Part shown: piece by piece, positions 10,508-64,000 of the stretch | Layout: the number at the start of each line of letters is the position of its first letter | Position numbering within the stretch: the stretch's first letter is position 1 | Origin: Candidatus Saccharimonadia bacterium | Lineage (GTDB): Bacteria; Patescibacteriota; Saccharimonadia; Saccharimonadales; 2-12-FULL-41-12 | DNA: 64,000 nucleotides | Direction of reading: 5' to 3' | Assembly: GCA_963717365.1 (NCBI GenBank) | Contig: OY970327.1 | Coordinates: forward strand, 1,119,752-1,183,751 | The notes under the pieces: generated by a model | Told to the model about the DNA's origin: nothing | The model's database searches: none | What the model saw: the letters and a program-made list of their open reading frames with translations, nothing else | Position numbers and translations under genes: made by a program

Positions 10508-11440
10508 ATGCCAAACGAAATCACCATTAGTGATATTCAGTCTATATTAAAGCTTGCAGGTACCGCAGGCTTCAGTGGAGATTTTCAAGCTCTTGGCGGC
10601 GGAGAGGTAAACGATACCTATTTGTTGAATTGTGGTGATCGTAAATTGATCTTACGTGTAGCACGTTATGAAGATCAGAATACTTTGCCGGATGAAGCCT
10701 ATGCGCTCAGTTTACTTGATTCTTCACGTATTCCAAAACTTATATATTTTGATAAGCAGCAGAGGATTAATGGCAGACAATGGATTTTGGAAAGCTATGT
10801 TAGTGGAGCGATTAAAGAACGACTAACCATAGAGCAGTTTAGCAATCTAGGCAAACTACTTGCAGAAGTACATCGAGTTCAATCAGACCATAAGCTTCTG
10901 GGTTTGTGGGATCAACTGCTAGATAATTGTAGAAGTTTTGGCAACGAAGCAAAACTATTGAATCATCCAGATCCGGTGATGCGTAAAATTATAATTGAAA
11001 GTAAGCAATTATTTCAGGAGCAGCAAAAAAACTATAATGCTATAACCCCAAGCTTAACTCATTCTGACGCTACGCCCAGCAATATATTAGTTGATGGTAA
11101 TAAGGTTGGGCTGATTGACTGGGAGTTTGCCAAATACACCGATCCAATGGCCGAATTTTCTACGATTTATTATGAAGATATGGAGTATAACCAAGGAAAG
11201 TGGCGTATACAAATACGAGGTGATGAGAAAGCTGCTTTGTTTAGTGGCTATGAGCTTGCTGGCGGGCAAATTGATGAAGATAGAATTAGGCTTTGGACGT
11301 ATCTCGATAAGCTAGGAGCGGCTATATTCTTATACTGGCGTATACATGAGTCCTCACGTGCTGCTAGGGAAGATCAAATTGTACAATACCGACTTGACCT
11401 AGAGAATTTGATCTTGTCACTTTCCAAAAGTTACTTATAA
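10508..11440 (+). CDS. aminoglycoside phosphotransferase / choline-kinase family kinase
   Basis: Catalytic loop LTHSDATPSNILV and metal-binding LIDWEF. Gly-rich N-lobe. Confidence 0.8.
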   Translation: MPNEITISDIQSILKLAGTAGFSGDFQALGGGEVNDTYLLNCGDRKLILRVARYEDQNTLPDEAYALSLLDSSRIPKLIYFDKQQRINGRQWILESYVSGAIKERLTIEQFSNLGKLLAEVHRVQSDHKLLGLWDQLLDNCRSFGNEAKLLNHPDPVMRKIIIESKQLFQEQQKNYNAITPSLTHSDATPSNILVDGNKVGLIDWEFAKYTDPMAEFSTIYYEDMEYNQGKWRIQIRGDEKAALFSGYELAGGQIDEDRIRLWTYLDKLGAAIFLYWRIHESSRAAREDQIVQYRLDLENLILSLSKSYL

Positions 11441-17304: not shown

Positions 17305-19275
17305 ATGTCTGCCAAAACTGTGAAAAAACTTCGTAAAAGATTTAGGAAACAATCAAAAGCTAGTCCTCCGATTGTAAAGGTCCCTGTGCATGGGCGGGCA
17401 ATAATTTTTAGCGTACTTATTTTAGCGGTAACACTGGCAGCTGGCAGTTTATACTACAGCTATCACACCAATAAACTACCGCCGCCACTTCCACCGCCGC
17501 CAGCTGACGCATTATATAAACAGGCTGATCAACCAATAGATAAGCGTGTAGAGGACTTGCTGTCCCGCATGACACTTGAAGAAAAAATTGGCCAAATGGG
17601 GATGGTTGATAAAAACAGTATCAAAAAACCAGCCGATATTTCGCGTTACGGGCTGGGTGCGGTACTGAGCGGTGCGGGTGCCAAGCCGCAGGACAACACA
17701 CCAGCTGGCTGGCTGAATATGGTTGAAACTTTAAAGATACAAGCCGAACATTCACGCCTGGGGATTCCTTTGCTATATGGAGTCGATGCTACTCATGGTC
17801 ATGCTGGTGTGCCAGGTGCCACGGTTTTCCCGCATGCTATTGGATTGGGAGCCAGCGGTAACCCGGAACTGGTGCGCTCAGTGGCCTCTGCTACTGCTGA
17901 AGAGTTAGCTGCCACCGGCATAAACTGGAATTTCGCACCCATGCTGGACGCGCCGGAAGATATTCGCTGGGGCAGAACCTACGAAGCATTTTCTAGTGAT
18001 CCAGAGTTGAACGGCCGGCTCGGAGCAGCCTATATAGAAGGCATACAAAAACCAGTTAACAATCGTCCGTTTGTGTTAGCCAGTGCCAAGCACTTTATGG
18101 GTGTTGGTTCAATGGAGTGGCTTAGCTCTAATAATAAGAACTTTAAAATTGACCAGGGTACAACTCCGGGACGCTACGACTTGCTCGATAACAACTATCT
18201 GATACCATATGCAGCAGCCGCAAAAGCCGATGTTAGCAGTGTGATGGTAGGACTTAACTACTTTGGCGACAAACGAGTTATTGATAATAAATATCTGCTT
18301 ACCGATAAACTAAAAAATGAATTAGATTTTAAAGGATTTATTGTATCTGATTGGTATGGCGCCTACGAATTTTCCCGCACCTCATCTTACAAAGCCAATA
18401 TTACTACCATAAACGCTGGGCTTGATATGGCCATGCTTCCGTATGATTACAAAGACTTTATAAAAGACGTACGCCGTGCGGTTAATAAGAATGAAATTCC
18501 CCAGGAGCGCATTGATGATGCGGTTCGCCGCATACTGTATCAAAAATTTAAGGCCGGTTTGTTTGATGACAGCAGCTCTACGGTCACTTTTGAAGCGTTT
18601 GGCTCTGCCGCTAACCGCCAGCTAGCCCGCCGTGCTGTTGCTTCTTCTGCGGTTTTGCTAAAAAATAATAACGCCTTGCCGCTTTCTAAGAACTTGGGCC
18701 ATATTTTGGTTGCTGGTAGTGGTGCCGATAATATTGGCCGCCAATCCGGCGCCTGGACGGTTGAGTGGCAAGGTATAGATGGTAATTGGCTGATTGGCGG
18801 AACCTCTATATTGAGCGGTATCAAGCAGACAGCCGGTTTAACTAGCCACGTAGAATACGACAAAGAAGCAAACTTTGAAAACCTGACTACCAAGGCAGAA
18901 ATTGGTATCGCGGTAATTAGCGAAAAACCCTACGCCGAAGGCTGGGGTGATAACGCCAAACCGGTTTTAGAAGAAAATGATTTGCTGGCAATTGAACGTC
19001 TCAAAGCCGTTGCCAATAAAGTGATAATCGTAACGGTAACAGGACGCCCGCTATTCATGAATGATCAAATTGCCGCCGCCGATGCCGTAGTGGCTGCCTG
19101 GCTTCCGGGTAGTGAAGGGCAAGGCGTAGCCGACGTGTTGTTTGGCGACCAAGCTTTCACTGGCAGTTTGCCGCTAGCCTGGCCTGCAAGCATTGAACAA
19201 TTGCCAATTAGATCTGATGGCACTACGGCAGACGGCAAACCACCATTATTTGAACGCGGTTTTAGACTACTATAA
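17305..19275 (+). CDS. glycoside hydrolase family 3 (beta-glucosidase/beta-hexosaminidase-like), N-terminally anchored
   Basis: KHFMGVGS and GFIVSDW (nucleophile Asp region). Two-domain GH3 length, with an N-terminal TM helix. Confidence 0.9.
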   Translation: MSAKTVKKLRKRFRKQSKASPPIVKVPVHGRAIIFSVLILAVTLAAGSLYYSYHTNKLPPPLPPPPADALYKQADQPIDKRVEDLLSRMTLEEKIGQMGMVDKNSIKKPADISRYGLGAVLSGAGAKPQDNTPAGWLNMVETLKIQAEHSRLGIPLLYGVDATHGHAGVPGATVFPHAIGLGASGNPELVRSVASATAEELAATGINWNFAPMLDAPEDIRWGRTYEAFSSDPELNGRLGAAYIEGIQKPVNNRPFVLASAKHFMGVGSMEWLSSNNKNFKIDQGTTPGRYDLLDNNYLIPYAAAAKADVSSVMVGLNYFGDKRVIDNKYLLTDKLKNELDFKGFIVSDWYGAYEFSRTSSYKANITTINAGLDMAMLPYDYKDFIKDVRRAVNKNEIPQERIDDAVRRILYQKFKAGLFDDSSSTVTFEAFGSAANRQLARRAVASSAVLLKNNNALPLSKNLGHILVAGSGADNIGRQSGAWTVEWQGIDGNWLIGGTSILSGIKQTAGLTSHVEYDKEANFENLTTKAEIGIAVISEKPYAEGWGDNAKPVLEENDLLAIERLKAVANKVIIVTVTGRPLFMNDQIAAADAVVAAWLPGSEGQGVADVLFGDQAFTGSLPLAWPASIEQLPIRSDGTTADGKPPLFERGFRLL

Positions 19276-53110: not shown

Positions 53111-54895
53111 TTAACTTCGGGGTGTGGCGCAGTTGATAGCGCGCTCGGTTTGGGACCGAGAGGTCGAAGGTTTGAGTCCTTTCACCCCGACCAGAAGAAC
53201 TTTTTCTTCATTTAAGAACCCGTTCCAGGGTTCTTTTAATTTGTGCTCCTTTATTGACCACTGTAAAACCTTATTTTCAGACGCTTCAACAGTGAGGTTC
53301 GAGAAGAATTTTTGAAGTATTGAATCAAGTGCTTTTATGTTGATGCTGTTCTGAACTCCTACCTCTATTATTTTACCTATATTTTCAAATAGTTCGAGAT
53401 ATTTATCATATGTCACAATCGAGTCTTTCAAGCTACTTAGATCTTTCTGTTTCGACTTTAGTTGCTTAGTGAGCTCATTAATCTCAGTTTGAATTTCATC
53501 AAGATTAAAGTGTTCTTTGAACCCGTCATTATTTAGTAGTAGGTTCTTTGCTCTGCTATATTCCTGCTTTTTATCACTTATTGATTTTGAAAGGCTTCCA
53601 ATATTACTGTTGATTTCTCTTCTTTTTTCACTCAGAGCTTCTCTAGCTTCAATTTTATAGTTTTCATAATTCGCTTTAGTGGTAAAAAGGTTTTCTTTCA
53701 GGAATTCGATACAATAATTGACAATAACTTTTGCACGCATACTTTTGCCCCTATAGTCACAATATTCTGTATTGCATCTGAAATAGAAATAATCGGTTTT
53801 CCCATCCTTTTTCTTCTTAGAGGTTATACCTGTGGACATACGCTTTCCACAATGCGCACATTCGACCACTCCTCTTAGTAAGTCTGCCCTAATTCCTGCA
53901 CTGTTCTTTGACAAGAAACGAGATGAGATGGTGGCAGAAGTTAAGTCTGATACTTTATTTATCTTGAGAAAATCATCTACTGATACGGCAGGGACAAAAT
54001 CATAATGATCCCTAAGGACAACTAGCGATTTCCCATACTTCAGAACTCCTGCATATACAGGATCTTTGAAAAAAGTTGAAACTCTTCCTTTTGTCCAAGT
54101 GTATTCAGTGGCTTTTTTGCCACTATATTGGACTTTATACCCTTTTGAATTAGCCCATTTTGCTATATCTATCTGTCTTTCGCCATCTAATCTTCTCTGA
54201 AACATACTCCGGACTATCTGATAATTGTTTCCATCAGGCTCGAGTGCTCTGTTTTTCAAGACTCTATATCCGTGAACTCTTTTACCTATAAATTCACCTC
54301 GTTGTTCAGTTGCCCTAACATTTCCCCTTGTTACAACCTGACTAAGATTTTCAGAATACTGCTTGGATAAGACAAACGAAATTCCAAGAAGCATTTTGCC
54401 TGTTGGGCTGTTTTCAAAAGACGATGTTGCAAATCTTAGGTCCATAAGAACACCCTTATCTAGAAGATCTATTAGTTCGCCAGCTTCTTTCATATTTCTA
54501 GATAGTCTGTCGGGGTGATAGCTGATTATCGCATCGAGTTTTCCGTTTTTAAGCTTTTCGATCAATGAAGTAAATTTTGGTCGTATATCAGGTTCTTTTG
54601 CAGAACCTTTCTCTGATATTATCTCTACTACATTTAAGCCCTCTTGCTCGACACAATGCTTTAAGCAGAGGTCTATCTGGTCGGAAATACTATGCTCTTG
54701 TCGTTCATCGCCTATTGTAGATTTGCGAGCATATATTGCATATTTAAGTTTTGAGTAATCTACTTCGGGATTTAAAAAATCGGTCCTTGAACTATTCAGC
54801 AACTTAAACAGATCTTCTACATTCGCATTCTTATCAATCATCAATTCTAGTTTAGCATTATTTGCGCTACAATTGATGTTATGGGAGTAAAACAA
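53111..54895 (-). CDS. large serine recombinase (integrase)
   Basis: Resolvase-type catalytic domain (YAIYARKSTIGDERQEHSISDQ), a recombinase domain, a Cys4 zinc ribbon (CAHCGKRM...FRCNTEYC) and a long coiled-coil tail. An alternative start is at 54841. The last ~27 codons are antisense to tRNA-Pro. Confidence 0.9.
   Translation of the reverse strand: MFYSHNINCSANNAKLELMIDKNANVEDLFKLLNSSRTDFLNPEVDYSKLKYAIYARKSTIGDERQEHSISDQIDLCLKHCVEQEGLNVVEIISEKGSAKEPDIRPKFTSLIEKLKNGKLDAIISYHPDRLSRNMKEAGELIDLLDKGVLMDLRFATSSFENSPTGKMLLGISFVLSKQYSENLSQVVTRGNVRATEQRGEFIGKRVHGYRVLKNRALEPDGNNYQIVRSMFQRRLDGERQIDIAKWANSKGYKVQYSGKKATEYTWTKGRVSTFFKDPVYAGVLKYGKSLVVLRDHYDFVPAVSVDDFLKINKVSDLTSATISSRFLSKNSAGIRADLLRGVVECAHCGKRMSTGITSKKKKDGKTDYFYFRCNTEYCDYRGKSMRAKVIVNYCIEFLKENLFTTKANYENYKIEAREALSEKRREINSNIGSLSKSISDKKQEYSRAKNLLLNNDGFKEHFNLDEIQTEINELTKQLKSKQKDLSSLKDSIVTYDKYLELFENIGKIIEVGVQNSINIKALDSILQKFFSNLTVEASENKVLQWSIKEHKLKEPWNGFLNEEKVLLVGVKGLKPSTSRSQTERAINCATPRS
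53118..53193 (+). tRNA. tRNA-Pro (anticodon UGG), CCA encoded
   Basis: Hand-folded cloverleaf with a 7-bp acceptor stem (CGGGGTG/CACCCCG), 4-bp D stem and 5-bp anticodon stem. The anticodon loop is TTTGGGA, the variable loop is 5 nt and the T stem is 5 bp. Discriminator A plus CCA. 76 nt. Confidence 0.9.
53214..53242 (+). terminator. rho-independent terminator downstream of tRNA-Pro
   Basis: AAGAACCC / GGGTTCTT 8-bp stem, 6-nt loop, then TTAATTT. It lies inside the 3' end of the minus-strand recombinase ORF. Confidence 0.55.
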
Positions 54896-55153
54896 GGATA
54901 TTCAAGACTAATGAACGGACACTTGAAGGTCTTAAATGTTAGTGAGCGTAACAGGGGTTACTTATTTGTAACTAAGGACAAAATAGCTATGAGGCTTTTT
55001 GGAGAAAGTATAAAGATAAGATACCAAGGAAGTGTTTCGGAATTTAAGTTCGATAAATTTGGAAGAGCACATACTGGCAAATTATTTTTGAATAAATTAC
55101 CGAATGAATTCAACCTACAATATAAAGATGAGGTATTAGAAATAACACTGTGA
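54881..55153 (+). CDS. 90-aa protein translationally coupled to the methyltransferase (possible controller)
   Basis: Its stop overlaps the MTase GTG start (GTGA). The C-terminal FGRAHTGKLFLNKLP...YKDEVLEITL loosely resembles the AbrB/MazE swapped-hairpin pattern. Weak evidence. Confidence 0.4.
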   Translation: MGVKQGYSRLMNGHLKVLNVSERNRGYLFVTKDKIAMRLFGESIKIRYQGSVSEFKFDKFGRAHTGKLFLNKLPNEFNLQYKDEVLEITL

Positions 55154-56169
55154 AAAAACAAAGTTTATTAAAAATAAAACCAAAAAGCTGGCAATCCGAC
55201 AAAAAATTATTTACATTTATAGACCTATTTGCTGGAATAGGCGGATTTAGGATAGCATCCGAACGATTAGGGGGAGAATGTAAATTTAGCTCCGAGTGGG
55301 ATAAGAATTCACAACACACATATTCAACAAATTTTGATGATATTCCAAGTGGTGACATTACTAAAATTAATGAAAACGATGTTCCAGAACACGATATATT
55401 GTTCGGTGGTTTTCCGTGTCAGGCATTTAGCATTTCTGGGAAAAAGAATGGGTTCAACGACACAAGAGGGACGCTATTCTTTGATATAGCAAGAATAGCT
55501 AAAAAAAATAAACCAAAAATGATGCTATTAGAGAATGTAAAAAATTTTGCCAGACACGATAATGGTAAAACTTTAGAGGTAATACTTAAAACTCTTAATG
55601 AAATTGGCTATGATGTATTTCATCAGATTCTTAAGTCGAGTGACTATGGTGTCCCTCAAGCAAGAGAAAGAATTTATCTAGTATGTTTTAGGAAGGAATT
55701 GAAAGTTAGCAAATTTGATTTTCCAAAACCGATTCCAGTTAATGATAAAAAAGTAGTTAGACATATACTTGAAAAAAATCCTAAGCCAACCGACACAAGA
55801 ATAATTGATAAACCCTTGAACTATGTAAATAAAAGCTCCAGCAGAGACACTACAAAGCCCCTCAAGCTCGGTTATTTCAATAAAGGAGGTCAGGGCGAAA
55901 GAGTTTATTCAATAGATAGTGCGGGGATTACTTTATCAGCATATGGCGGTGGATTAGCGAGCAAAACAGGGGCATACGATGTAGATGGCATAATAAGAAA
56001 ATTAACACCTAGAGAATGTGCGAGAATGCAGGGTTTCCCAGAAGACTTTTCAATTCCAGTATCAAAAAATACTGCATTAAAACAATTTGGTGATAGTGTT
56101 TCAGTCCCTGTCGTTGAGTCAGTATTAAGGAAAATGTTATTAACAACAAAGGTAATACTAGATGAATAA
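55150..56169 (+). CDS. DNA (cytosine-5) methyltransferase, M.HhaI-like (predicted GCGC)
   Basis: Motifs are FIDLFAGIGGF (I), GGFPCQAFS (IV), ENV (VI), PQARERIY (VIII) and TPRECARMQGFP / FGDSV (IX-X). The variable region KGGQGERVYS...ITLSAYGGG..KTG is near-collinear with my recollection of the M.HhaI target-recognition domain. Confidence 0.95.
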   Translation: MKKQSLLKIKPKSWQSDKKLFTFIDLFAGIGGFRIASERLGGECKFSSEWDKNSQHTYSTNFDDIPSGDITKINENDVPEHDILFGGFPCQAFSISGKKNGFNDTRGTLFFDIARIAKKNKPKMMLLENVKNFARHDNGKTLEVILKTLNEIGYDVFHQILKSSDYGVPQARERIYLVCFRKELKVSKFDFPKPIPVNDKKVVRHILEKNPKPTDTRIIDKPLNYVNKSSSRDTTKPLKLGYFNKGGQGERVYSIDSAGITLSAYGGGLASKTGAYDVDGIIRKLTPRECARMQGFPEDFSIPVSKNTALKQFGDSVSVPVVESVLRKMLLTTKVILDE

Positions 56170-56956
56170 CGAAGAATTAATTAAGCTTGGCTCAAAAACA
56201 GCTAAAGCAGGGTTCAAAAATGAAGATTATGTTGTAGCGGAATTTAATGAATGGAAAACTAGCGACCTTAGCAAGCTCTGGCTTGTTAAAATGGGCTACA
56301 AACTTACAGAGATAGAATATGTTAAAGCGGAGAAAATTAAGGGCTCATTCAAGGCTGATATTCAAGTAGAAATTAGAATTGAAATCAAGCTTAAGGCACT
56401 TCAAGACATACAAAACTTGCAAGTAAAACTCGTATCAAACCCTAGAGGATTCAATCAAATTGATAAACGATGGATTTCAAAATATGTTGGACTCTGGGAC
56501 ATACCAGCAAATGTTGAAAAAGTATTGAAACACTTTACGGGCGAACTGCCCCCCTATATTAAAGATCCGAGAGACCCAAGAAGAATGTTTATGGACGAAT
56601 TTAGTATAGATAACCAACAATTGATACTTAATTTCATAAACGACAACAAAACTTTGATAATTTCTGACATCCTAAAAGGTAGAGGAAAATTTTCCGCTGA
56701 ATGGATGTTAGTAATTTTAAAAAATCCTGAAAACGATATGTTAGTAGATTGGGCACTCGAGCCAATAAACTATGTATTAAATTACTATGGAAATGGACCC
56801 GTAACAATAACTAGCCGAGGAAGCATAACAATAGGTAATATTACTATCCAAAGAAAAGGTGGTGACAATGGGCGACCAACTGCAAATATGCTTCAATTTA
56901 AGATAAACCCCGTTGAGTTAATAAACAAAAATCCTGAAAAACTAATCATTGTTTAG
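56162..56956 (+). CDS. type II restriction endonuclease, HinP1I/MspI-family-like (predicted GCGC)
   Basis: 8-nt overlap with the MTase. LGSKTAKAGFKNE, LQVKLVSNPRGFNQIDKRW, HFTGELPPY, RRMFMDEFS and ITIQRKGGDNGRPTANMLQFKI match R.HinP1I as I remember it. Confidence 0.75.
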   Translation: MNNEELIKLGSKTAKAGFKNEDYVVAEFNEWKTSDLSKLWLVKMGYKLTEIEYVKAEKIKGSFKADIQVEIRIEIKLKALQDIQNLQVKLVSNPRGFNQIDKRWISKYVGLWDIPANVEKVLKHFTGELPPYIKDPRDPRRMFMDEFSIDNQQLILNFINDNKTLIISDILKGRGKFSAEWMLVILKNPENDMLVDWALEPINYVLNYYGNGPVTITSRGSITIGNITIQRKGGDNGRPTANMLQFKINPVELINKNPEKLIIV

Positions 56957-57005
56957 CATTGTGCTTAACCTTGCTGTTGTATATCAGTAAGAATATTATG
57001 TAGAT

Positions 57006-57647
57006 ATGATTACTGTCACACAAATAGAACTCTTTAATATATTTGCAAGCATACTGTCTGTTTGTTTAGCAATTTTAGCTATATGGCTATCACTTACTTT
57101 TTTTATTAAGTCCAAAGATTCTGAAAAAAAGGTTGAAGTATCTTTGAATAAAATAGAAGACTCTTCAAATACTTTGCAAAGCATTTCAATGAAGCTAATA
57201 AATAGACTTACATCTGCACTTACGACAGCTAAACCATATGAAGAGAAGCTTTCAGAAATAATTAAATCATTAACTTCTTCGGGGGGGATCAATAATTCTG
57301 ATGAAAGTTCTGATAGCTCAACCAGCAGAAAAGAACTTGAACAAATGAGAGTTGATAACTTATTTAGCACGCTTTATTATTGTGCTGTATCAAATCTAGC
57401 AACTTCTTCAGCATTATCGGCTTCCAGAGATGTAGATAGTCAAACAATAAAAGAACTAGGAACTATGCTAGATCAAACAAAACAGGACTATGAGTTAATC
57501 CTTAAATGGATAAACAGCACTCCAAAAATAAATGAAAAGATAGAAAGTAGCACAAATAAGCACCTTTATGTCTCTGCATTGAGTTGGCAAAGTAAACTAG
57601 TTGATCTTAATAGCTTTGTTGAGAGCCTTTCAACAGTAAAACAGTAA
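57006..57647 (+). CDS. island cargo: membrane-anchored helical/Ser-rich protein, unknown function
   Basis: 213-aa ORF with an N-terminal TM helix (IFASILSVCLAILAIWLSLTFFI). No motif recognised. Confidence 0.5.
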   Translation: MITVTQIELFNIFASILSVCLAILAIWLSLTFFIKSKDSEKKVEVSLNKIEDSSNTLQSISMKLINRLTSALTTAKPYEEKLSEIIKSLTSSGGINNSDESSDSSTSRKELEQMRVDNLFSTLYYCAVSNLATSSALSASRDVDSQTIKELGTMLDQTKQDYELILKWINSTPKINEKIESSTNKHLYVSALSWQSKLVDLNSFVESLSTVKQ

Positions 57648-57674
57648 ACAAACAGTTAAGTTTTAGGAAATTAT

Positions 57675-58085
57675 TTAGCCAACCCAAGTGTGGTTATAAT
57701 CAAGCATCCTTAACCCCTCACCTTTGAATTTCATAGGTTGTTCATCACTTGCAAGGTTATCTGACAGCTTGGCAACCAATTCGATTAGTTTATATGTTGG
57801 CACATCTGAATAATCTCTTTTACCTAGTTCCTCTCGCATTGCTTTTAACTGTTCACCTTGCAAGATTAATCTATGTTTTTTGCTTGCCAAATACTGTTCT
57901 CTAAGAGATTCAAGCTCAATGGTTTTGTAGTTTGCTAATTCAATTTCAAGTTCACCGCTCCACTTTATCAAGGTAGGTTTACTTACATTAATTTCGTTAG
58001 ATATACTATCGTAGCTATTACCCTTAGCACGCAATGCTATAAACTTTTGTTTTATATCAATCGTTTCTGCCATAGTTCGAGCCAT
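57675..58085 (-). CDS. island cargo: N-terminal HTH protein with coiled-coil tail
   Basis: RAKGNSYDSISNEINVSKPTLIKW is a resolvase/terminase-small/transposase-type HTH. GGGG RBS. Confidence 0.6.
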   Translation of the reverse strand: MARTMAETIDIKQKFIALRAKGNSYDSISNEINVSKPTLIKWSGELEIELANYKTIELESLREQYLASKKHRLILQGEQLKAMREELGKRDYSDVPTYKLIELVAKLSDNLASDEQPMKFKGEGLRMLDYNHTWVG

Positions 58086-58101
58086 TCAACCCCTAGTAAT
58101 A

Positions 58102-58266
58102 TTATGCGTCCTTTGTAGTTATTTCATTACTATTTTCACCAAGTTGGATAGTGTTACCACTACTATCAGTTACTGACATATCTCCTGAGACATTACCACT
58201 TGAAGTAGATGGATTGCTTTCAGATATGTCACTAACTTCATTTAATGCGTCAGATTGATTTCCCAT
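58102..58266 (-). CDS. island cargo: 54-aa acidic Ser/Asn-rich peptide
   Basis: Hand-translated MGNQSDALNEVSDISESNPSTSSGNVSGDMSVTDSSGNTIQLGENSNEITTKDA. AAGGA RBS. A TGtTATAAT extended -10 lies at 58300..58308 on the minus strand. Confidence 0.3.
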   Translation of the reverse strand: MGNQSDALNEVSDISESNPSTSSGNVSGDMSVTDSSGNTIQLGENSNEITTKDA

Positions 58267-58435
58267 TTTTATCCTTTATACATAGTGTTTATCCTCTTTA
58301 TTATAACACTATAGCCAGAGGTGATGTATCTTTTGAACTGGAATATGAATATTCTAAATCCGAATAGGCTTGCTGATATTCATACGGCTTTTCGATGATA
58401 CAATTAAATAGTTCGAGAAGGGTTACCTTATCTCG

Positions 58436-58477
58436 ACCAAGCAAAGGGCCGTCCATAGTGACGGCTTTTTGCTTGGT
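58436..58477. terminator. long hairpin at the island/chromosome boundary (terminator-like)
   Basis: ACCAAGCAAA-GG-GCCGTC / GACGGC-TT-TTTGCTTGGT. The core 6-bp stem is followed by TTTTT on the plus strand. It lies 20 nt downstream of the minus-strand gene 58497..59054. Confidence 0.5.
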
Positions 58478-58496
58478 CTAGAGTACCGCCGAAAAC

Positions 58497-59054
58497 CTAA
58501 CGAGCACCGTCTTCCCGATGGCTTCTTGTAAATGACATTGCTAGGGCGGCCGATCCAATTATTACCATCGAGCTAAACCCCCCTACAAAACCTATGGATA
58601 TAATATAATCTGTAGCTTCATTTGATGACACGCTGCTTGCTTTTATGTCGGCTGCTTCTTGTAAGTTTTCAATACTTGGGAGTTGGACGTTAGCTCCGGT
58701 AAGCACTACCTTAGGGGTTATTGGCGCCTGTATTTCGCTAACGGCTTGATCGATGATGCCACAGTCAATTCTTTCAGCAGGAGTTAACGCAGTATATTTT
58801 ACGGTTGGCATAGCAGATTCGTTATCGGTGTAACGTTCTACTACCAATTGGCATCTCTCATGTTGTTTCTGCTCTTTATAAGGTCCACCGCTGAGACCAT
58901 GCTCTATACCGGTTTTATTTGCCAAAGTATAACCGCCAAAGCCGCAACTGGCTACTACTAGAGCTGCCATGCTTGAGAGCACCGCTCGCCGCCGATCAAT
59001 ATTATTTTTTAGTCGGTCTAATCTTTCGCTCATATCTCTCCTCTTTGCAAGCAA
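58497..59054 (-). CDS. bitopic membrane protein (N- and C-terminal TM helices), unknown function
   Basis: 185-aa ORF with TM helices near residues 25-45 and 150-175. Confidence 0.55.
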   Translation of the reverse strand: MLAKRRDMSERLDRLKNNIDRRRAVLSSMAALVVASCGFGGYTLANKTGIEHGLSGGPYKEQKQHERCQLVVERYTDNESAMPTVKYTALTPAERIDCGIIDQAVSEIQAPITPKVVLTGANVQLPSIENLQEAADIKASSVSSNEATDYIISIGFVGGFSSMVIIGSAALAMSFTRSHREDGAR

Positions 59055-59100
59055 ATATAGTTAATTAATATCAAAATTAGGTAAATCCGTCAACAATATA

Positions 59101-59847
59101 CTATAACTTGTACAATAGTGATTTGCGGTAAGATTCGGCTTCAGATTTTGCATCCTGCATATTATCGGCCAGTTCCCAACGAAACGCATTAGCCAAGCCA
59201 GAAATTCTGTTGTTGGCACGAGGCTTAGCTAGATCAAAGTCAATCTGTTCAGCTTGCAAGGGTTCTTGGAAAACAATGGTCATAGTATTCTTCTCAACGG
59301 TACCAGCAATGCCAGCCGGGATTACCGGCACACCATACTTAATAGCTAAATAGCCAATACTGCCCTTGAGCTTGCCAATTGGCTCTGCCTGCTCCATCCG
59401 CTTGCCTTGAGGATAAATACAAAATGGCTCTTTGTTAACTATAAATATCTGATTAAGACGCTCCAGTACCCGGGGTTGATTTTCTAACGAAACACTACGA
59501 TTAATCGGAAATCCGCCCCCATGCTCAACAAATCTTCCGGTTGCCCAGCCAAACTTTCCCTCCCAAAATTCACTTTTAGCCACGAAGTGTAAATTATGGC
59601 CAACAGCATCGAGTACTGCTTTGCCAACGACAGCAGTATCCAAATGGCTAATATGATTTGGGCTAACAATGTACGGTCCTTCTTCGGGTATGTTGTCTGC
59701 GCCAACTACCGTTAACCCACCTTTGTTTGAAATATAGCGTGTAAACACGGCATTAAGGAAGCCGCAATAGCGTGGTGATGGCTCAGGACAGCGCTCAAAA
59801 GCTTTAAGGCTAGGCTCTGGCGGGGAATTAGACTTTCGTAAACTCAT
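59101..59847 (-). CDS. plsC: 1-acyl-sn-glycerol-3-phosphate acyltransferase family
   Basis: NHISHLD (H....D catalytic motif), FVAKSE and IYPQGKR blocks. Confidence 0.8.
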   Translation of the reverse strand: MSLRKSNSPPEPSLKAFERCPEPSPRYCGFLNAVFTRYISNKGGLTVVGADNIPEEGPYIVSPNHISHLDTAVVGKAVLDAVGHNLHFVAKSEFWEGKFGWATGRFVEHGGGFPINRSVSLENQPRVLERLNQIFIVNKEPFCIYPQGKRMEQAEPIGKLKGSIGYLAIKYGVPVIPAGIAGTVEKNTMTIVFQEPLQAEQIDFDLAKPRANNRISGLANAFRWELADNMQDAKSEAESYRKSLLYKL

Positions 59848-59911
59848 GTGAGGTAAATTTTAAATGAAATTATGGCTATAAACAAAAGCGTTACCAGAGA
59901 ATTAAATGGAA

Positions 59912-60101
59912 AAAGGCTTTAGTACAGGTTGTTAAAAAATGTGTGATGCGATGCATCGAACAGATTTGTTACGTGTGTACTAAAGCCTTTGGCCTAGGGG
60001 AGCATGATTTGCTACTTCAGTTCAAGACATTCTTGAACCTACTTAACCCTAGGTAGTGGAGTGGTGCGTTACCGCTCGCCGATCGACGTCTGTCGTAGAC
60101 G
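59912..60101 (-). other. structured intergenic region (nested hairpins), candidate 3' UTR element or small RNA
   Basis: 15-bp perfect stem 59912..59926 / 59976..59990. 7-bp stem 59993..59999 / 60047..60053 enclosing the 8-bp hairpin 60020..60038. 5-bp hairpin 60087..60101. A U-run follows the outermost stem on the minus strand. Confidence 0.4.
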
Positions 60102-60108
60102 GTGCCTT

Positions 60109-60345
60109 TCAGCGTTTGAAGGTCATGACCTTGGTCATGCGCTCACAGACACTGGTGTTCGGCCAACGCTTCTTGCCATCCACAACGGCGACATAAAGCA
60201 CGACGGCGCAAGGCGCTAGAAACGACAACACGGTTGCGGCGTCTTTGTAGCCGGCGCTGAACACAGCGAGAATCACGATGATGGCTACCAGCAGCGGGAG
60301 CACCACCATGTCAACGTACTGCTTTTCGTTCTTTTTGAGTCGCAT
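60109..60345 (-). CDS. 78-aa two-TM membrane protein in a GC-rich insert
   Basis: Strong RBS GAGAGGAG 6 nt upstream. Two hydrophobic helices. G/C-ending codons, unlike neighbouring genes. Confidence 0.6.
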   Translation of the reverse strand: MRLKKNEKQYVDMVVLPLLVAIIVILAVFSAGYKDAATVLSFLAPCAVVLYVAVVDGKKRWPNTSVCERMTKVMTFKR

Positions 60346-60512
60346 TGCTGCTCCTCTCTGGGGTGGTGGACATTACTCCTATCAATCTGTTGATTGACAC
60401 ACCAACCATAGCATAAAGAACGTTTCTAGAAAATTGGATATGCTTACAAATTATGGTATTTGACACATTGTTAAGTATGTTATTAAATGTTCCTAATTCA
60501 AATGGAGTTACT

Positions 60513-60845
60513 ATGGATTTAAATGGTCACAATAGAATTACGGAAATACTAAGTAGCCGAGAGTATATATACAATGTCTCAGTACATCCCACTGATTGGG
60601 AATTTGTAAATGAAGCAGCAGAGGATCAGAGTGCTCGCATATATGAAGACGCCAGATTTGTAGATATTGTTACTACTGCGCTTCCTAGTGCTGTGCTAAC
60701 GGCTTTGCACGAAGGAGGAGTTTTGTATGATGAAGATCAGCAAGCCGCCCACAAGGGAGTTAATGGTCCAGTACTAAAATTGCTCGGCATCTGTAAAGAT
60801 AATGTCTATACACTAACGTTTAAAGACATGGTCTCAACCAAATAA
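60513..60845 (+). CDS. hypothetical protein
   Basis: ORF-track 60453..60845. The ATG at 60513 is preceded by GGAG. Confidence 0.5.
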   Translation: MDLNGHNRITEILSSREYIYNVSVHPTDWEFVNEAAEDQSARIYEDARFVDIVTTALPSAVLTALHEGGVLYDEDQQAAHKGVNGPVLKLLGICKDNVYTLTFKDMVSTK

Positions 60846-60846
60846 T

Positions 60847-61188
60847 ATGATAGAAACCAATAAAACCAATAAGGGTTCTACTTCACCAGAAAAGAAAAAG
60901 AAAAAAGACAGTACCGAAAAAGAGGGCTGGTTTGATAATATGGTGAGCACCATGCAGTTAAAATGGGAAGAGCGGCCATCACTAAGTACGATACAGCTGT
61001 ATCATTTCCCTATATTTTTAGCAGTAGGAGCTATTGCCATAGGTACATTTGATGCCACTTTTGACACTAAAATAGCCGAGAAAATGAAGGCCGAACAAGT
61101 CGAAAAACAAGATGGCTTTTTTGAACGACAAGTTGAAGGAGCGATTCACGAAATTGGAAAAATCGCCGTTGATATGAAGGATGATTAA
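60847..61188 (+). CDS. small membrane protein, Lys-rich N-terminus
   Basis: 113-aa ORF starting 1 nt after the upstream stop. One TM helix (FPIFLAVGAIAIGTF). Confidence 0.5.
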   Translation: MIETNKTNKGSTSPEKKKKKDSTEKEGWFDNMVSTMQLKWEERPSLSTIQLYHFPIFLAVGAIAIGTFDATFDTKIAEKMKAEQVEKQDGFFERQVEGAIHEIGKIAVDMKDD

Positions 61189-61291
61189 CCGGTCGTACTG
61201 CACATGGTTACTTAGGCGGTAGATGTTATAAGTAATTTATATTTAATGAACGTAACACCAGGAACAGATCACCAATAATAAAGGACAATGT

Positions 61292-61576
61292 ATGCCATCA
61301 GAAAAAATTAATTCAACCAATACAGAACCTGACCGCGAATCTAGCGTGACGCGCCGATTTGTGATGGGAGCGTTGGTGGGCGTAGTTTATAGTGGCGTCT
61401 GGATTGCCGGACTAGAGACTATGGACGCTGTGGGGTTTGTTGAAGCTGAACGAGAAGCTGAGATTATTGCTGGTGTGGCAATAACCGCTATAGCAGGCTT
61501 TGTGGCTGCACGTGGAGACGGCGCCGTGTCATTAAAATTTAGGCGTCAGGATAAGAAGACGAGGAGTAACACATGA
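61292..61576 (+). CDS. small two-TM membrane protein
   Basis: 94-aa ORF with a GGA-rich RBS region and two hydrophobic segments. Confidence 0.5.
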   Translation: MPSEKINSTNTEPDRESSVTRRFVMGALVGVVYSGVWIAGLETMDAVGFVEAEREAEIIAGVAITAIAGFVAARGDGAVSLKFRRQDKKTRSNT

Positions 61577-62067
61577 GGGTTGTATCTAGAGCTGCGGTAG
61601 CCATAGCAGCCGGGCTTGTCAGTTTTGGGTCAAGCCGTGGATTTACTGAACTCAGAGATATACCCGGATATGCCCAGGAAGTTAATCAGAAGGTAGAGCG
61701 CTGTGTCCCAAGCTTAGGACAAACTGCTACGCGTGCATCTGAACTACCGGAAGAATGCAAGAATTTTGAAGACAACTTTGAGTACGAAGAAACTATAGTA
61801 TATGCCTATGACCCCAAAGAGCGTGTTAGAAAAGAAATTAGTGTTAAGCGAACTTATACTTTACCTTCCGCTGCAGAATTGCGCGAACAACATTTCATGA
61901 CACCAACAGATATACAAGAAGAGGAAACAGAAGCTAAAAATACTGACATCGGTTTAGGTGGTTTTATTGCTGTCTTTGGCTTTTGCTTTATGTCACTGGC
62001 GGATGTGGCCGAAAAAAGGCGAAAACGTAAGCAAGACGAGCTACGAAAAAATAAACAAAAATTGTAA
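61573..62067 (+). CDS. bitopic membrane protein, basic C-terminal tail
   Basis: ATGA overlap with the upstream gene. N- and C-terminal hydrophobic helices, the same architecture as 58497..59054. Confidence 0.55.
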   Translation: MRVVSRAAVAIAAGLVSFGSSRGFTELRDIPGYAQEVNQKVERCVPSLGQTATRASELPEECKNFEDNFEYEETIVYAYDPKERVRKEISVKRTYTLPSAAELREQHFMTPTDIQEEETEAKNTDIGLGGFIAVFGFCFMSLADVAEKRRKRKQDELRKNKQKL

Positions 62068-62128
62068 CAAGCGTTTGGGGCAATAATATTGATAAATATA
62101 CCTTTATATATTATAATAAATATTAATT

Positions 62129-62521
62129 ATGGCCAATGTAATAAAGAGATCTGTCGATGCGCTTCGAACTGCTCCCTTTGGCTTTTCTCTGATTGGGCTT
62201 ACGATTTTAAATGGACCTGTGCTGGCTTTAACGGAAAACGGTGCTGAAGCATTAGATTTACTTGTAATTCCGCTGGATGGAGCTAGCGTGGCAATAGGTG
62301 GAATATTTGTTGTCCGCCAGTATCGATTAAGACGACGGCTCGAAGACAGCATAGAACGCAACGGCTACGACGATCGCTTATTTGATCCAACTACCAAAGA
62401 GTGGTGTAATCGGCAAACTGCTCGTGTTGTTTGTGGTAACAGTGGTGATTTGGCGCAATACGAAGCATTATGTGAACAGAAACGCGCTACTAACGAATTA
62501 CCAAGGATGCCACATGTTTAA
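62129..62521 (+). CDS. membrane protein, unknown function
   Basis: 130-aa ORF. The N-terminus APFG|FSLIGLTIL is vaguely prepilin-like but lacks E5. A second hydrophobic helix follows. Confidence 0.5.
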   Translation: MANVIKRSVDALRTAPFGFSLIGLTILNGPVLALTENGAEALDLLVIPLDGASVAIGGIFVVRQYRLRRRLEDSIERNGYDDRLFDPTTKEWCNRQTARVVCGNSGDLAQYEALCEQKRATNELPRMPHV

Positions 62522-62616
62522 TATTATTACGCATACTTCTATAAAACTGTTGACCAGGCTGCAAAAAAAGAGTATTTATAGTAATAGTAATAAATCTTAC
62601 ATACGAAAAATAAATT

Positions 62617-63078
62617 ATGGCTACTGAATCTCAATCTGAAATAATATCCCTCGAAGATTACGAATTCGGGAAGATTGGCTGTTGTCCACTTGATGAACTT
62701 GAAGACGATGCTTTATATAGGTTGCGTACAAAAGAACTTGGCTATGAAAACCAGGCATTGTCGCTTGGTAGTTTTGCTACCGATATTACAGTCAGAGTGA
62801 TAGGTAAAAACTGTAATCCGAAAAGTGCTGAAGTAGCCTATGAAGCCTATGGCAATAGATCGGGTGAGGCAATTGGAGTTGATATAAAGAGTGCAGATCT
62901 TGAAGGTTTAATTTATAAAAATGAAGCTAGTAAGTGTCGAGGTGACGATGTTGGCTATTTCTTAGCTGCCGACGAAACCTTAGGCTTAGAAGACGGCAGA
63001 CTAGTGGTCCGCCTACTAGAACCGCTACGACAGAAAAAAGCGGTGCAGTTGAAGTCGATGGAATTGCCGCGAGAATAG
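62617..63078 (+). CDS. hypothetical cytoplasmic protein
   Basis: 153-aa acidic ORF. No motif recognised. Confidence 0.5.
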   Translation: MATESQSEIISLEDYEFGKIGCCPLDELEDDALYRLRTKELGYENQALSLGSFATDITVRVIGKNCNPKSAEVAYEAYGNRSGEAIGVDIKSADLEGLIYKNEASKCRGDDVGYFLAADETLGLEDGRLVVRLLEPLRQKKAVQLKSMELPRE

Positions 63079-63109
63079 CTCTTACAAACTCGTAAAATAG
63101 AAAGCAAAC

Positions 63110-63652
63110 ATGAAAAAAAATGAAAATGGCTTTGGCCTGATTGCGATACTTGTGCCGATTATTATGATTGTGGCGGCTGGATTTGCCGGCTGGTACGTGT
63201 GGCAAAAAAATAAAACCGAATCTAGTGCCAAAGTCACGAGTCGGGCAAACCCAAACACAACACCTGATAAAAGCGGTGCGCCGGAAACTACGCGCACAGC
63301 TACTGCAAAAGAAGAACTTGAAAATCAGGATCAGTTGCTAAGGAATCATGTGTCTCGTCTGGTAGCTGGCGTAGTTGAGTATGCGTCAAACAACAACGGT
63401 ATTTTCCCCCAGGATCTTGTGGGCGTTCGAGCGGCAGCCGAAGTTGACGGCAAGCCGGTCCAAAATGTGTATCGGTCATGGAAAAATGCTGGGCCAATCA
63501 CCCAGGGGAAGCCAGAAGCTTCAACCTTTTACTACGCAACCTTCCATACCTGTGATCCTACAAATAACCTTATGAGCGCTGGCGGTACTAAGCGTATGAG
63601 CGCAGTCGTTGTGCAAATGCCTTCCGGCGCTGCTTACTGCACCGAAAATTAG
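63110..63652 (+). CDS. pilin-like protein lacking Glu5
   Basis: Short leader MKKNENG|FGLIAILVPIIMIV (G-F junction, hydrophobic helix, no E5) and a C-terminal Cys pair (HTCDP...AAYC) like a pilin D-region. Confidence 0.5.
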   Translation: MKKNENGFGLIAILVPIIMIVAAGFAGWYVWQKNKTESSAKVTSRANPNTTPDKSGAPETTRTATAKEELENQDQLLRNHVSRLVAGVVEYASNNNGIFPQDLVGVRAAAEVDGKPVQNVYRSWKNAGPITQGKPEASTFYYATFHTCDPTNNLMSAGGTKRMSAVVVQMPSGAAYCTEN

Positions 63653-63699
63653 AGTACCAATAACTGTGTTTTATAGGGTATGCTATCTCTAGAGTAACT

Positions 63700-64000
63700 A
63701 TGAACATTATTGATTCCACTAAACAATTTGTTCGCGGCAAGATGGACTGCCTGGCAGCCGGTCTAGACAAATTGACCGACGGCGCCATAACACCCAACGG
63801 TATCACGATTACTAGTTTCGCTGGACATTTCGCAGTTGGCTACTTGATTATTTTTGATTATTTAATAATTGCCGGCCTGTGCCTGATTGTATTTGGGTTG
63901 ATGGACGCACTAGACGGCGCCCTGGCCAGGCATAAAAAAATTGCCAGTACGCAGGGCATGTTTTTTGACGCGTCAACCGACCGGCTGAAAGAAGTCGTGT
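63700..64000 (+). CDS. CDP-alcohol phosphatidyltransferase family protein (5' part, runs off the window)
   Basis: Hand-translated from the ATG at 63700. DALDGALARHKKIASTQGMFFDASTDRLKE fits DG..AR........G...D...D. Confidence 0.75.
   Translation, partial: MNIIDSTKQFVRGKMDCLAAGLDKLTDGAITPNGITITSFAGHFAVGYLIIFDYLIIAGLCLIVFGLMDALDGALARHKKIASTQGMFFDASTDRLKEVV

Follow-up and report, generated by a model that had tools for sequence, protein, structure and literature searches.

Large serine recombinases (LSRs) mostly target protein-coding genes, and in one of the elements that they move, Tn4451, expression of tnpX is tied to the circular form by a promoter that is formed at the circle joint. Here we describe a locus in a 64,000-nt stretch of Candidatus Saccharimonadia bacterium (contig OY970327.1, positions 1,119,752 to 1,183,751; hereafter the window), in which an LSR gene, a restriction-modification (R-M) system and four further open reading frames (ORFs) lie in an AT-rich island directly 3′ of a tRNA-Pro(UGG) gene. 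Taken as a whole, the locus is in our judgement best explained, with good confidence, as a 5,246-bp integrative element that is moved by its LSR, belongs to a family found across Saccharibacteria, and has its recombinase gene split by its own integration.

The window family shares with phiC31, Bxb1, A118/LI, TP901-1, SCCmec (CcrAB/CcrC) and Tn4451 (TnpX) the order of domains (a serine catalytic resolvase domain, a recombinase domain, and a zinc ribbon with coiled coil) and the fold, as well as attachment (att) sites that are predicted to be short, with only tiny identity between attP and attB, and a recombinase gene at one end of the element. It is unlike them in its target, which is the CCA end of a tRNA, in having attP within the recombinase ORF, with the last ~45 residues exchanged, and in its hosts, the Saccharibacteria of the candidate phyla radiation (CPR). 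Whereas Tn4451 joins a promoter at the circle joint, the window family joins coding sequence.

The SSV-type 'suicidal' tyrosine integrases have been stated to be restricted to archaea (PMC8371274, PMC7253208), and tandem or successive integrations in archaea (Thermococcales) create hybrid integrase genes (PMC7253208, PMC8371274). In the SSV-type elements (SSV1, pTN3, pT26-2), as in the window family, attP lies in the integrase ORF and is translated, the target is a tRNA, the gene is partitioned to both ends of the element, and hybrid recombinase genes arise from tandem integration. The SSV-type enzymes are, however, tyrosine recombinases (Phage_integr_3, PF16795) of archaeal hosts, whereas the window family has serine domains only and lives in Saccharibacteria. 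Moreover, in the SSV-type genes the catalytic domain is split off, so that two inactive pseudogenes remain, while the window LSR keeps all of its recognised domains and loses 45 codons; the label 'suicidal' may not apply to it. Integration-dependent immunity in the mycobacteriophages BPs and Brujita, which have attP in the repressor gene, a tyrosine integrase, and a removed tail that is a degradation tag, resembles the window family in that attP lies within a gene of the element and integration changes the C-terminus of its product; the gene that is split is the tagged repressor in these phages, whereas in the window family it is the serine recombinase itself. The classical tRNA islands with tyrosine integrases also lie immediately downstream of a tRNA, with the integrase gene beside it; they too are compositionally atypical and bear accessory or defence genes. 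The window island differs from them in its lack of a tyrosine integrase, in a 6-bp rather than 15-50-bp repeat of the tRNA, and in a crossover predicted at the very end of the tRNA.

Our searches of the open-access literature turned up no serine recombinase whose gene contains its attP, and no work on recombinase islands of Saccharibacteria. The island itself is ordinary, a small integrative R-M element; the new part is an LSR that targets the CCA end and whose integration severs its own gene. A bacterial serine-recombinase family with this layout would be an independent second origin beside the archaeal tyrosine integrases, and it offers a tractable system for asking why recombinase genes keep their own attachment site inside.

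Insertion at the CCA end of tRNA-Pro

The AT-rich block that the original prediction had placed beside tRNA-Pro (53194-58477) was borne out by a sliding-window run. Its GC content is 34.7% (34.6% for the island as delimited below) against 44.0% in the remainder of the window, and it is the GC minimum among all 5.3-kb windows of the stretch, for which the 5th-95th percentile range is 37-47%. The profile falls from 0.42-0.53 in the left flank to 0.31-0.39 at ~53250-58250 and rises again to 0.41-0.47 on the right. The first 12 kb of the window are also rather AT-rich (39-42% GC in 2-kb bins, compared with 44-50% further on).

Relatives of the flanking YmdB lie in Saccharibacteria (TM7) genomes, the best at 78% identity. 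In the loci of 63 relatives ymdB is followed by an identical or near-identical tRNA-Pro whose 3′ end is always ...CCCCGACCA, CCA being encoded, and in ~40 of them an intrinsic terminator stands directly next to the tRNA (L066, for example, reads ATCAAAGAGTCCACAGCAATGTGGGCTTTTTGATTGGTCAAGAG). The alignment to relatives that had been proposed in order to find an empty site therefore yields ~40 such loci, and the block, far from being present in all relatives, is absent from the closest one and from ~40 others. In the window the tRNA is followed by the island, and the motif AGCAAAGGGCCGTCCATAGTGACGGCTTTTTGCTTGGTCTAGAG appears 5.2 kb from the tRNA, immediately after a second CGACCA. This motif is shared with the terminators directly 3′ of tRNA-Pro in L066, L069, L072, L013, L017 and others, and on this comparison the stretch at 58440-58477 is homologous to the tRNA-Pro terminators of the empty sites, that is, host DNA outside the island. 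Since the tRNA is followed by the terminator in the empty-site relatives and the terminator motif follows the second CGACCA in the window, we place the island at 53194-58439 (5,246 bp), which amounts to insertion exactly at the CCA end, between tRNA-Pro(UGG) and its terminator. The ends, which the original prediction had left undefined, are thus fixed by the CGACCA copies and the host terminator; its right border at 'tandem hairpins' (58477) moves to 58439, and the hairpins prove to be one stem of 18 bp (58436-58477; dG -29.8 kcal/mol, z -7.65). In none of 80 relatives does a homolog of the right-flank genes, which encode a 185-aa protein and an acyltransferase, lie within 10 kb of ymdB, and the right border is set by the terminator motif and not by gene order.

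The reconstructed empty site reads tRNA...CGACCA|AGCAAAGG, the predicted attB is tRNA ...CACCCCGACCA|AGCAAAGGGCCGTC and the predicted attP is ...CCTTATCTCGACCA|GAAGAACTTTTTC. The tRNA-Pro at the island is intact and wholly host-derived, its 3′ end forming the B arm of attL. A repeat search at the distal border found no stretch of 15 bp or more that repeats the tRNA 3′ end; CGACCA (6 bp) is the only part in common. The original prediction, which had found no copy of the tRNA end there, holds for a long repeat and fails for this short one; its explanation of the missing repeat by the short crossover of serine recombinases agrees with just 6 bp being shared.

One other assembly was matched by exact-protein look-ups of flank and island genes, and was compared by contig and gene coordinates. 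In this short-read assembly (Logan ERR12037361) the island stands alone on a 5,300-bp contig equal to window 53163-58462, and the right host contig ends at window 58433, giving a 30-nt (k-1) overlap with the island contig. The contig ends and the overlap place a branch of the assembly graph no more than 1 nt from each inferred junction. Exact-pattern scans of JGI (Joint Genome Institute) metagenome contigs for the predicted empty site and for the host terminator were both without a match, suggesting that the window species is not in that collection.

The identity between attP and attB is confined to (C)GACCA, 5-6 bp. In every pair examined the P′ and B′ arms have different bases after CCA, so the dinucleotide that is exchanged should lie inside this block. 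Among the outer inverted repeats of attP the best conserved, GTTC...GAAC, has its centre at the CA of CCA. Related islands all start directly after ..GACCA, with P and P′ arms conserved within ~30 bp, and the LSR relatives that abut tRNA-Gly(GCC) have CCA alone in common with the tRNA-Pro sites. Exchange at the CCA end would leave the tRNA wholly host-derived and intact, which matches the observed state. We infer exchange at CC or CA, with CA (53192-53193) favoured.

Twenty nucleotides into the island, the P′ arm contains a hairpin that reads, in the sense of the tRNA, AAGAACCC-GTTCCA-GGGTTCTT (53214-53235) followed by TTAATTT (to 53242). It is antisense to the LSR coding sequence and was picked up by a terminator scan (dG -17 kcal/mol, z -4.2). 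Over 12 elements 92.7% of the cells are paired, and the covariation score exceeds that of 500/500 shuffles; one pair has six double-sided changes and varies between AU, CG, UA, GC and UG. We regard 53214-53242 as a candidate substitute terminator for tRNA-Pro, with moderate support from the sequence comparison. The hairpin and T-tract would end the tRNA-Pro transcript after the native terminator has been displaced, and would also block tRNA transcription from running antisense into the recombinase gene.

The recombinase gene and its C-terminal segment

By every criterion of sequence and modelled fold the window enzyme is classed as a large serine recombinase. It matches Resolvase (PF00239, 7.5e-23), Recombinase (PF07508, 8e-11) and Zn_ribbon_recom (PF13408, 8.6e-06) in Pfam, as well as PHROG 95 'integrase' (2.1e-68). 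The 576-aa protein has the catalytic Ser41 and R39 of a YARKST motif, invariant in 65 homologs (alignment A1), and in the same alignment the four zinc-ribbon Cys are present and invariant. An AlphaFold2 model of the homolog P0040 (mean pLDDT 84.8) shows long helices, 392-475, between the zinc-ribbon strands, and a Foldseek search with it retrieved serine integrase-att complexes (9y66 and 9dxh at E~1e-19) as well as Bxb1 and phiC31. A single-sequence PDB search with P0040 gave no match, and a profile search matched catalytic domains only. The original prediction's view that an LSR and not a tyrosine integrase drives the island gains from the lack of any tyrosine integrase among the island proteins (no Phage_integrase match in Pfam), from the recurrence of LSRs at the same tRNA end, and from the free circle of a related element described below.

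Two features go beyond the original prediction: the LSR ORF runs on through the tRNA, and the LSR gene spans the attachment site. The LSR body occupies 53194-54841, after which the ORF reads antisense through tRNA-Pro to a stop at 53111-53113. The last ~26 codons of the integrated ORF (53114-53193) are thus tRNA antisense and non-native. At the other end of the island, a mechanically called ORF ('orf51', 58301-58456, minus strand) takes a chance ATG from the host terminator and has no Pfam family. It has 42-51% amino-acid identity to counterparts in independent islands, with the similarity starting only at residue 7, which is the exact island border.

The right end of each island was then joined to its left end, mimicking excision. 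The LSR frame crosses the junction in eight type-1 islands (L010, L051, L057, L067, L081, L085, L086 and L087). In seven of these the continuation is 43-45 codons long and has the form ...KLKEPWxGF-(7 aa)-GRDxxxLLELFxYI...(I/L)V(L/F) before the stop; L067 has an in-frame continuation without the GRD motif. The divergent LSRs of L035, L041 and L058 run in frame into a 53-codon tail of a second type. Many tail positions that share an amino acid differ in codon. Between the tails of L087 and L092, for example, positions with the same amino acid use the same codon in 5 cases and a different one in 12, which indicates conservation at the level of the protein.

The uninterrupted tail is found in two database proteins, P0040 (593 aa) and P0109 (592 aa). 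P0040 is encoded on two 5,667-bp contigs from two samples, each with a 30-nt terminal overlap, and these are exact circular permutations of each other; the two properties together give a 5,637-bp circle. Its sequence reads ...TTTCGATTG-TGGTCGAGAG...CTCGAACT... unbroken within the ORF, so that an intact attP junction with a full-length gene physically exists. The excised circular form that the original prediction had suggested looking for was thus obtained for a relative, and none for the exact window element. In the P0040 model the junction falls just past the last zinc-ribbon strands and the tail forms two helices (551-565 and 567-581).

Judged from these comparisons, 'orf51' is the detached C-terminus of the LSR, and attP lies inside the LSR frame ~45 codons before the stop. 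Integration divides the LSR gene and spares the tRNA: the last ~45 codons come to lie 5.2 kb off, inside the right end and upstream of orf54-orf136, and the body at the left end acquires a meaningless antisense-tRNA tail. At 58301-58305 the stop codon of the C-segment overlaps the TATAAT that the family conserves ahead of orf54-orf136. On one strand of the circular form LSR, orf54 and orf136 follow in this order, and they could form one transcription unit that is broken by integration.

In the cycle that we propose, LSR made from the circle would recombine attP with attB through a staggered 2-bp exchange at CA within CCA. The new C-terminus acquired on integration would alter the activity or directionality of the enzyme, excision would restore the full-length gene, orf54 and orf136 would regulate or direct excision, and the elements would pass between cells by some route. 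A further step, which we put forward tentatively and think rather unlikely, is that the two-helix tail swap is a built-in switch of commitment or directionality: the full-length enzyme made from the circle would integrate, the tail-swapped chromosomal form would be locked or biased to excision, tandem accretion would shuffle hybrids, and the whole would be a bacterial counterpart of the archaeal 'suicidal' integrases, independently evolved in CPR. The choice of direction by serine integrases is an active topic in structural biology and genome engineering, and a C-terminus that differs between the free and the integrated state is a natural experiment.

The main rival to this functional switch is that the overlap between attP and the 3′ end of the LSR gene reflects genome compaction without regulatory meaning, the tail being dispensable and direction coming from a separate factor (orf136/orf54). 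We consider this quite possible, if short of an even chance. It accords with the detachment of only a short stretch past the zinc ribbon, which leaves the catalytic, recombinase, zinc-ribbon and coiled-coil parts intact, with the existence of at least two unrelated tail types that are swapped between bodies in tandem arrays, and with the conserved orf54-orf136 pair, which could give classical directionality control. On the other hand, the tail keeps an open frame and the GRDxxxLLELF...IVL pattern, with many synonymous changes, in integrated copies in which it is untranslatable, and this argues for selection during a phase in which it is translated. The retention of the split position across LSR clades that are just 29-35% identical also speaks against compaction.

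A family at one tRNA end and the fate of the window copy

A protein search with the LSR gave 618 homologs at E <= 1e-20, and the identical 576-aa protein (P0001) is encoded on a 1.19-Mb contig in NCBI/ENA. At least 49 of the best 120 homologs end GRGERT(R/Q)TFDL(T/S)VPNRARYQLRHTP, which is the antisense translation of tRNA-Pro, and many others among the 120 stop at GRG or GRGDRT, where contigs break inside the tRNA. These endings mean that most of the LSR family is seen integrated at one site. LSRs of 29-60% identity abut the tRNA-Pro end in many Saccharibacteria genomes; opposite-strand LSRs of 29-48% identity stand directly after it in L010, L035, L041, L051, L057, L058, L067 and L073, and remnants occupy the site in L002, L008, L009, L011, L018, L045, L062 and L080. 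Overall, an LSR island or remnant is present at tRNA-Pro in ~16 of ~58 species-representative loci. This end is a conserved and apparently neutral target, occupied in about a quarter of the sampled species. Saccharibacteria and other CPR are hard to manipulate genetically, and a compact LSR with a ~50-bp site is a candidate integration tool.

Conserved across islands are, on the left, the LSR and, on the right, the homologs of orf136 and orf54, a TATAAT-containing motif and the last ~60 bp. The cargo in between varies: an N4/N6 methyltransferase with an MvaI/BcnI endonuclease in L085/L086, HEPN, APH and SDR genes in L081, a SocA/Panacea protein in L092, HNH, C5 methyltransferase and S24 peptidase genes in L067, and an AAA_14/DUF4143 ATPase in L010. 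With their R-M, toxin-antitoxin-like and other cargo, such elements are probably a main route by which defence genes pass between these reduced genomes.

Tandem arrays of LSR islands were seen in L098 (10001-17364; Logan SRR28413655) and L086 (1-1300). The internal junctions of L098 contain hybrid full-length genes, one with a class-A body and type-2 tail (P0096, 614 aa) and a second with a class-B body (648 aa) and the type-1 tail GREKRLLLELF...; this 21.8-kb locus has no tRNA. In L086 the left end of one island directly follows the right end of another. On two IMG/VR contigs (L093:8738-10465 and L094:9965-11683), LSRs of 45% identity abut the CCA end of tRNA-Gly(GCC), and their ORFs run antisense into that tRNA (...FVCGAGKETLTPGLF), which suggests that the LSR family has switched tRNA targets while keeping the CCA junction. 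In the class-C islands L057 (12805-14365) and L067 (13414-15029) the LSR has as neighbours, within the predicted island, a tyrosine recombinase (Phage_integrase ~1e-17) and an MgsA_C fragment; both types of recombinase thus occur together in some family members. In L032 (~10920-10990) a 14-nt repeat of the tRNA-Pro 3′ end (TTTCACCCCGACCA) lies 40 nt downstream of the tRNA, before the terminator, and in L067 (~18740-18860) an extra tRNA-Pro 3′ remnant with a terminator lies 112 bp beyond the LSR island; both resemble scars of other integrations at the same tRNA, possibly by tyrosine integrases.

Several observations weigh against our account of the window element. Its LSR body and C-segment are one base out of register, and its P′ spacer lacks 1 nt. 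For the exact window element neither an empty site nor a circle nor a junction-spanning read was recovered, and the branch points in ERR12037361 (53192|53193 and 58432|58433) are each 1 nt left of those predicted for a mixture of filled and empty sites, given the shared CGACCA. The placement of the crossover at CA relies on one 4-5-bp inverted repeat and the identity block, and a scan of whole-arm symmetry in attP gives no single centre. The P0040 tail is modelled at moderate confidence only (pLDDT 63-76). The candidate terminator hairpin overlaps the conserved coding motif KLKEPWxGF and has clear covariation in one pair only. Lastly, no transfer, packaging or replication genes were found, so that the route between cells is not given by gene content. 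Saccharibacteria could plausibly acquire them by natural transformation, and genes for type IV pilus components are present in the window.

The missing base raises the possibility that the window copy is a stranded relic, which arrived by LSR integration, was disabled by a 1-nt deletion and is now a fixed R-M island. The spacer from GACCA to GAACCC is 22 nt in the window and 23 nt in seven related elements (L009, L010, L051, L081, L085, L090 and L092), and a circular form of the window copy would end ...NEEKVLLVEIR before its stop. The deletion can be located only to within 53194-53213, most probably in the T run at 53201-53205. It may be genuine and inactivating, or else a homopolymer error of assembly or sequencing, and the window copy may no longer be able to complete the cycle. 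The loss of frame favours a relic, as does the frequency of decayed LSRs at tRNA-Pro (six of the remnants above: L002, L008, L009, L011, L018 and L045). Against it, no damage is seen in the 45-codon segment, in the LSR body, which retains R39/S41 and the four Cys, or in any other ORF, cargo genes included; the host part shows no GCGC depletion (observed/expected 1.0), hinting at a recent arrival; the deletion, lying in a homopolymer, could be an assembly error; and the island assembles apart from its flanks in ERR12037361. We therefore regard a stranded relic as a plausible state of this copy, though not the favoured one. One extra base in the 53201-53205 run could explain the left offset in ERR12037361, and does not explain the right one. 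Programmed -1 frameshifting at GAAGAAAAAG, which would bridge body and C-segment, was also considered and rejected: the A-run is not conserved, and the relatives are simply in frame.

That the block is a degraded prophage or phage satellite, with the LSR as a leftover phage integrase, seems improbable to us. The PHROG 95 match, a weak match of orf136 to a terminase small-subunit helix-turn-helix (HTH) domain (E 0.005) and the presence of two relatives on IMG/VR contigs could be read in this way. However, genes for capsid, tail, terminase, lysis and replication are absent from the window island and from related islands, the free circle is a mere 5.6 kb with the same types of genes, and the IMG/VR matches are the LSRs at tRNA-Gly, with a tyrosine-recombinase-like ORF just past that tRNA in L093. 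An immobile ancestral AT-rich segment of the host can hardly be upheld, since, although one flank sample is AT-rich too and other parts of the window reach 39-40% GC, the block is missing in the closest relative and ~40 others, in which the terminator directly follows the tRNA, the block has precise junctions, and its recombinase comes from a family specific for this site.

Gene content of the island

The gene content of the island is listed in Table 1. Pfam and PADLOC agree with the gene set first proposed, namely an LSR, a complete R-M system and four ORFs of no known family; PADLOC, NCBIfam and PHROGs gave nothing solid for orf90, orf213, orf136 or orf54. Genes for virion or lysis proteins, relaxases and type IV secretion were found neither in the window island (Pfam, PHROGs, NCBIfam) nor in related islands or the circle.

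Table 1. Features of the tRNA-Pro island and its borders, in window coordinates.
Feature	Coordinates	Strand	Details
LSR ORF, integrated state	53111..54841	-	576 aa, identical to P0001; start 54841 agrees with independent gene call
Host tRNA-Pro(UGG), encoded CCA	53118..53193	+	ARAGORN; Rfam RF00005 64.6 bits
CGACCA, left copy	53188..53193	.	attP/attB identity block, read from sequence; crossover predicted to fall inside
P′ arm of attL (predicted)	53194..53242	+	holds terminator-like hairpin
T5 run (A5 on coding strand)	53201..53205	.	likeliest place of 1-nt deletion
orf90	54881..55153	+	divergent from LSR; also called as gene in independent assembly; no Pfam family
C5 cytosine DNA methyltransferase	55150..56169	+	PF00145 8e-98; PADLOC MTase_II 7.9e-116
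R.HinP1I-family Type II restriction endonuclease	56162..56956	+	PF11463 2.5e-90; PADLOC REase_II 4.3e-97
orf213	57006..57647	+	hydrophobic N-terminus; variable cargo; no Pfam family
orf136	57675..58085	-	backbone protein, HTH-like; no Pfam family
orf54	58102..58266	-	small acidic Ser-rich backbone protein upstream of orf136; no Pfam family
Promoter-like region for orf54-orf136	58300..58337	-	-35 TTCAAA 58337-58332; -10 TATAGT 58313-58308
Detached LSR C-segment	58301..58438	-	45 codons + stop, GRDKVTLLELFNCIIEKPYEYQQAYSDLEYSYSSSKDTSPLAIVL
P arm of attR (predicted)	58410..58439	.	AGTTCGAGAAG-N10-TTATCTCGACCA; kept in 9 islands
CGACCA, right copy	58434..58439	.	second copy at right island border
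B′ arm and original intrinsic terminator of tRNA-Pro	58440..58477	+	host DNA, pushed 5.2 kb away by island

At the right end, an alignment of nine right ends shows ATTATA(A/G)C (TATAAT, 58305-58300) to be family-conserved ahead of orf54-orf136. Homologs of orf136 have 70% identity in L087-89, 45% in L041 and 37% in L085/86 (with a weak Pfam HTH_23 match in the last), and orf136 itself has weak PHROG HTH matches only. Weak homologs of orf54 occupy the same position in L081, L083 and L085-89. On this evidence orf136 is a candidate regulator or directionality factor, and the orf54-orf136 pair a candidate for the control of excision. A relationship of orf136 to the DUF5681 proteins beside the LSRs of some relatives was considered and rejected, as the two are unrelated. 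No homolog of orf213 was found among related islands.

The methyltransferase and endonuclease genes are adjacent and overlap by 8 nt. The pair is a HinP1I-type Type II system, for which homology predicts GCGC specificity, and as cargo it may serve in defence, as an addiction module, or both. In the host part of the window GCGC occurs 218 times against 218.5 expected (ratio 1.0), and this lack of depletion fits a recent arrival of the island. CCGG and GATC are, like GCGC, near 1.0 in the host part (1-53193 and 58440-64000). GGCC is under-represented there (176 occurrences, where a Markov model predicts 251; ratio 0.70), a deficit that may reflect a past or present GGCC-specific restriction system in the lineage.

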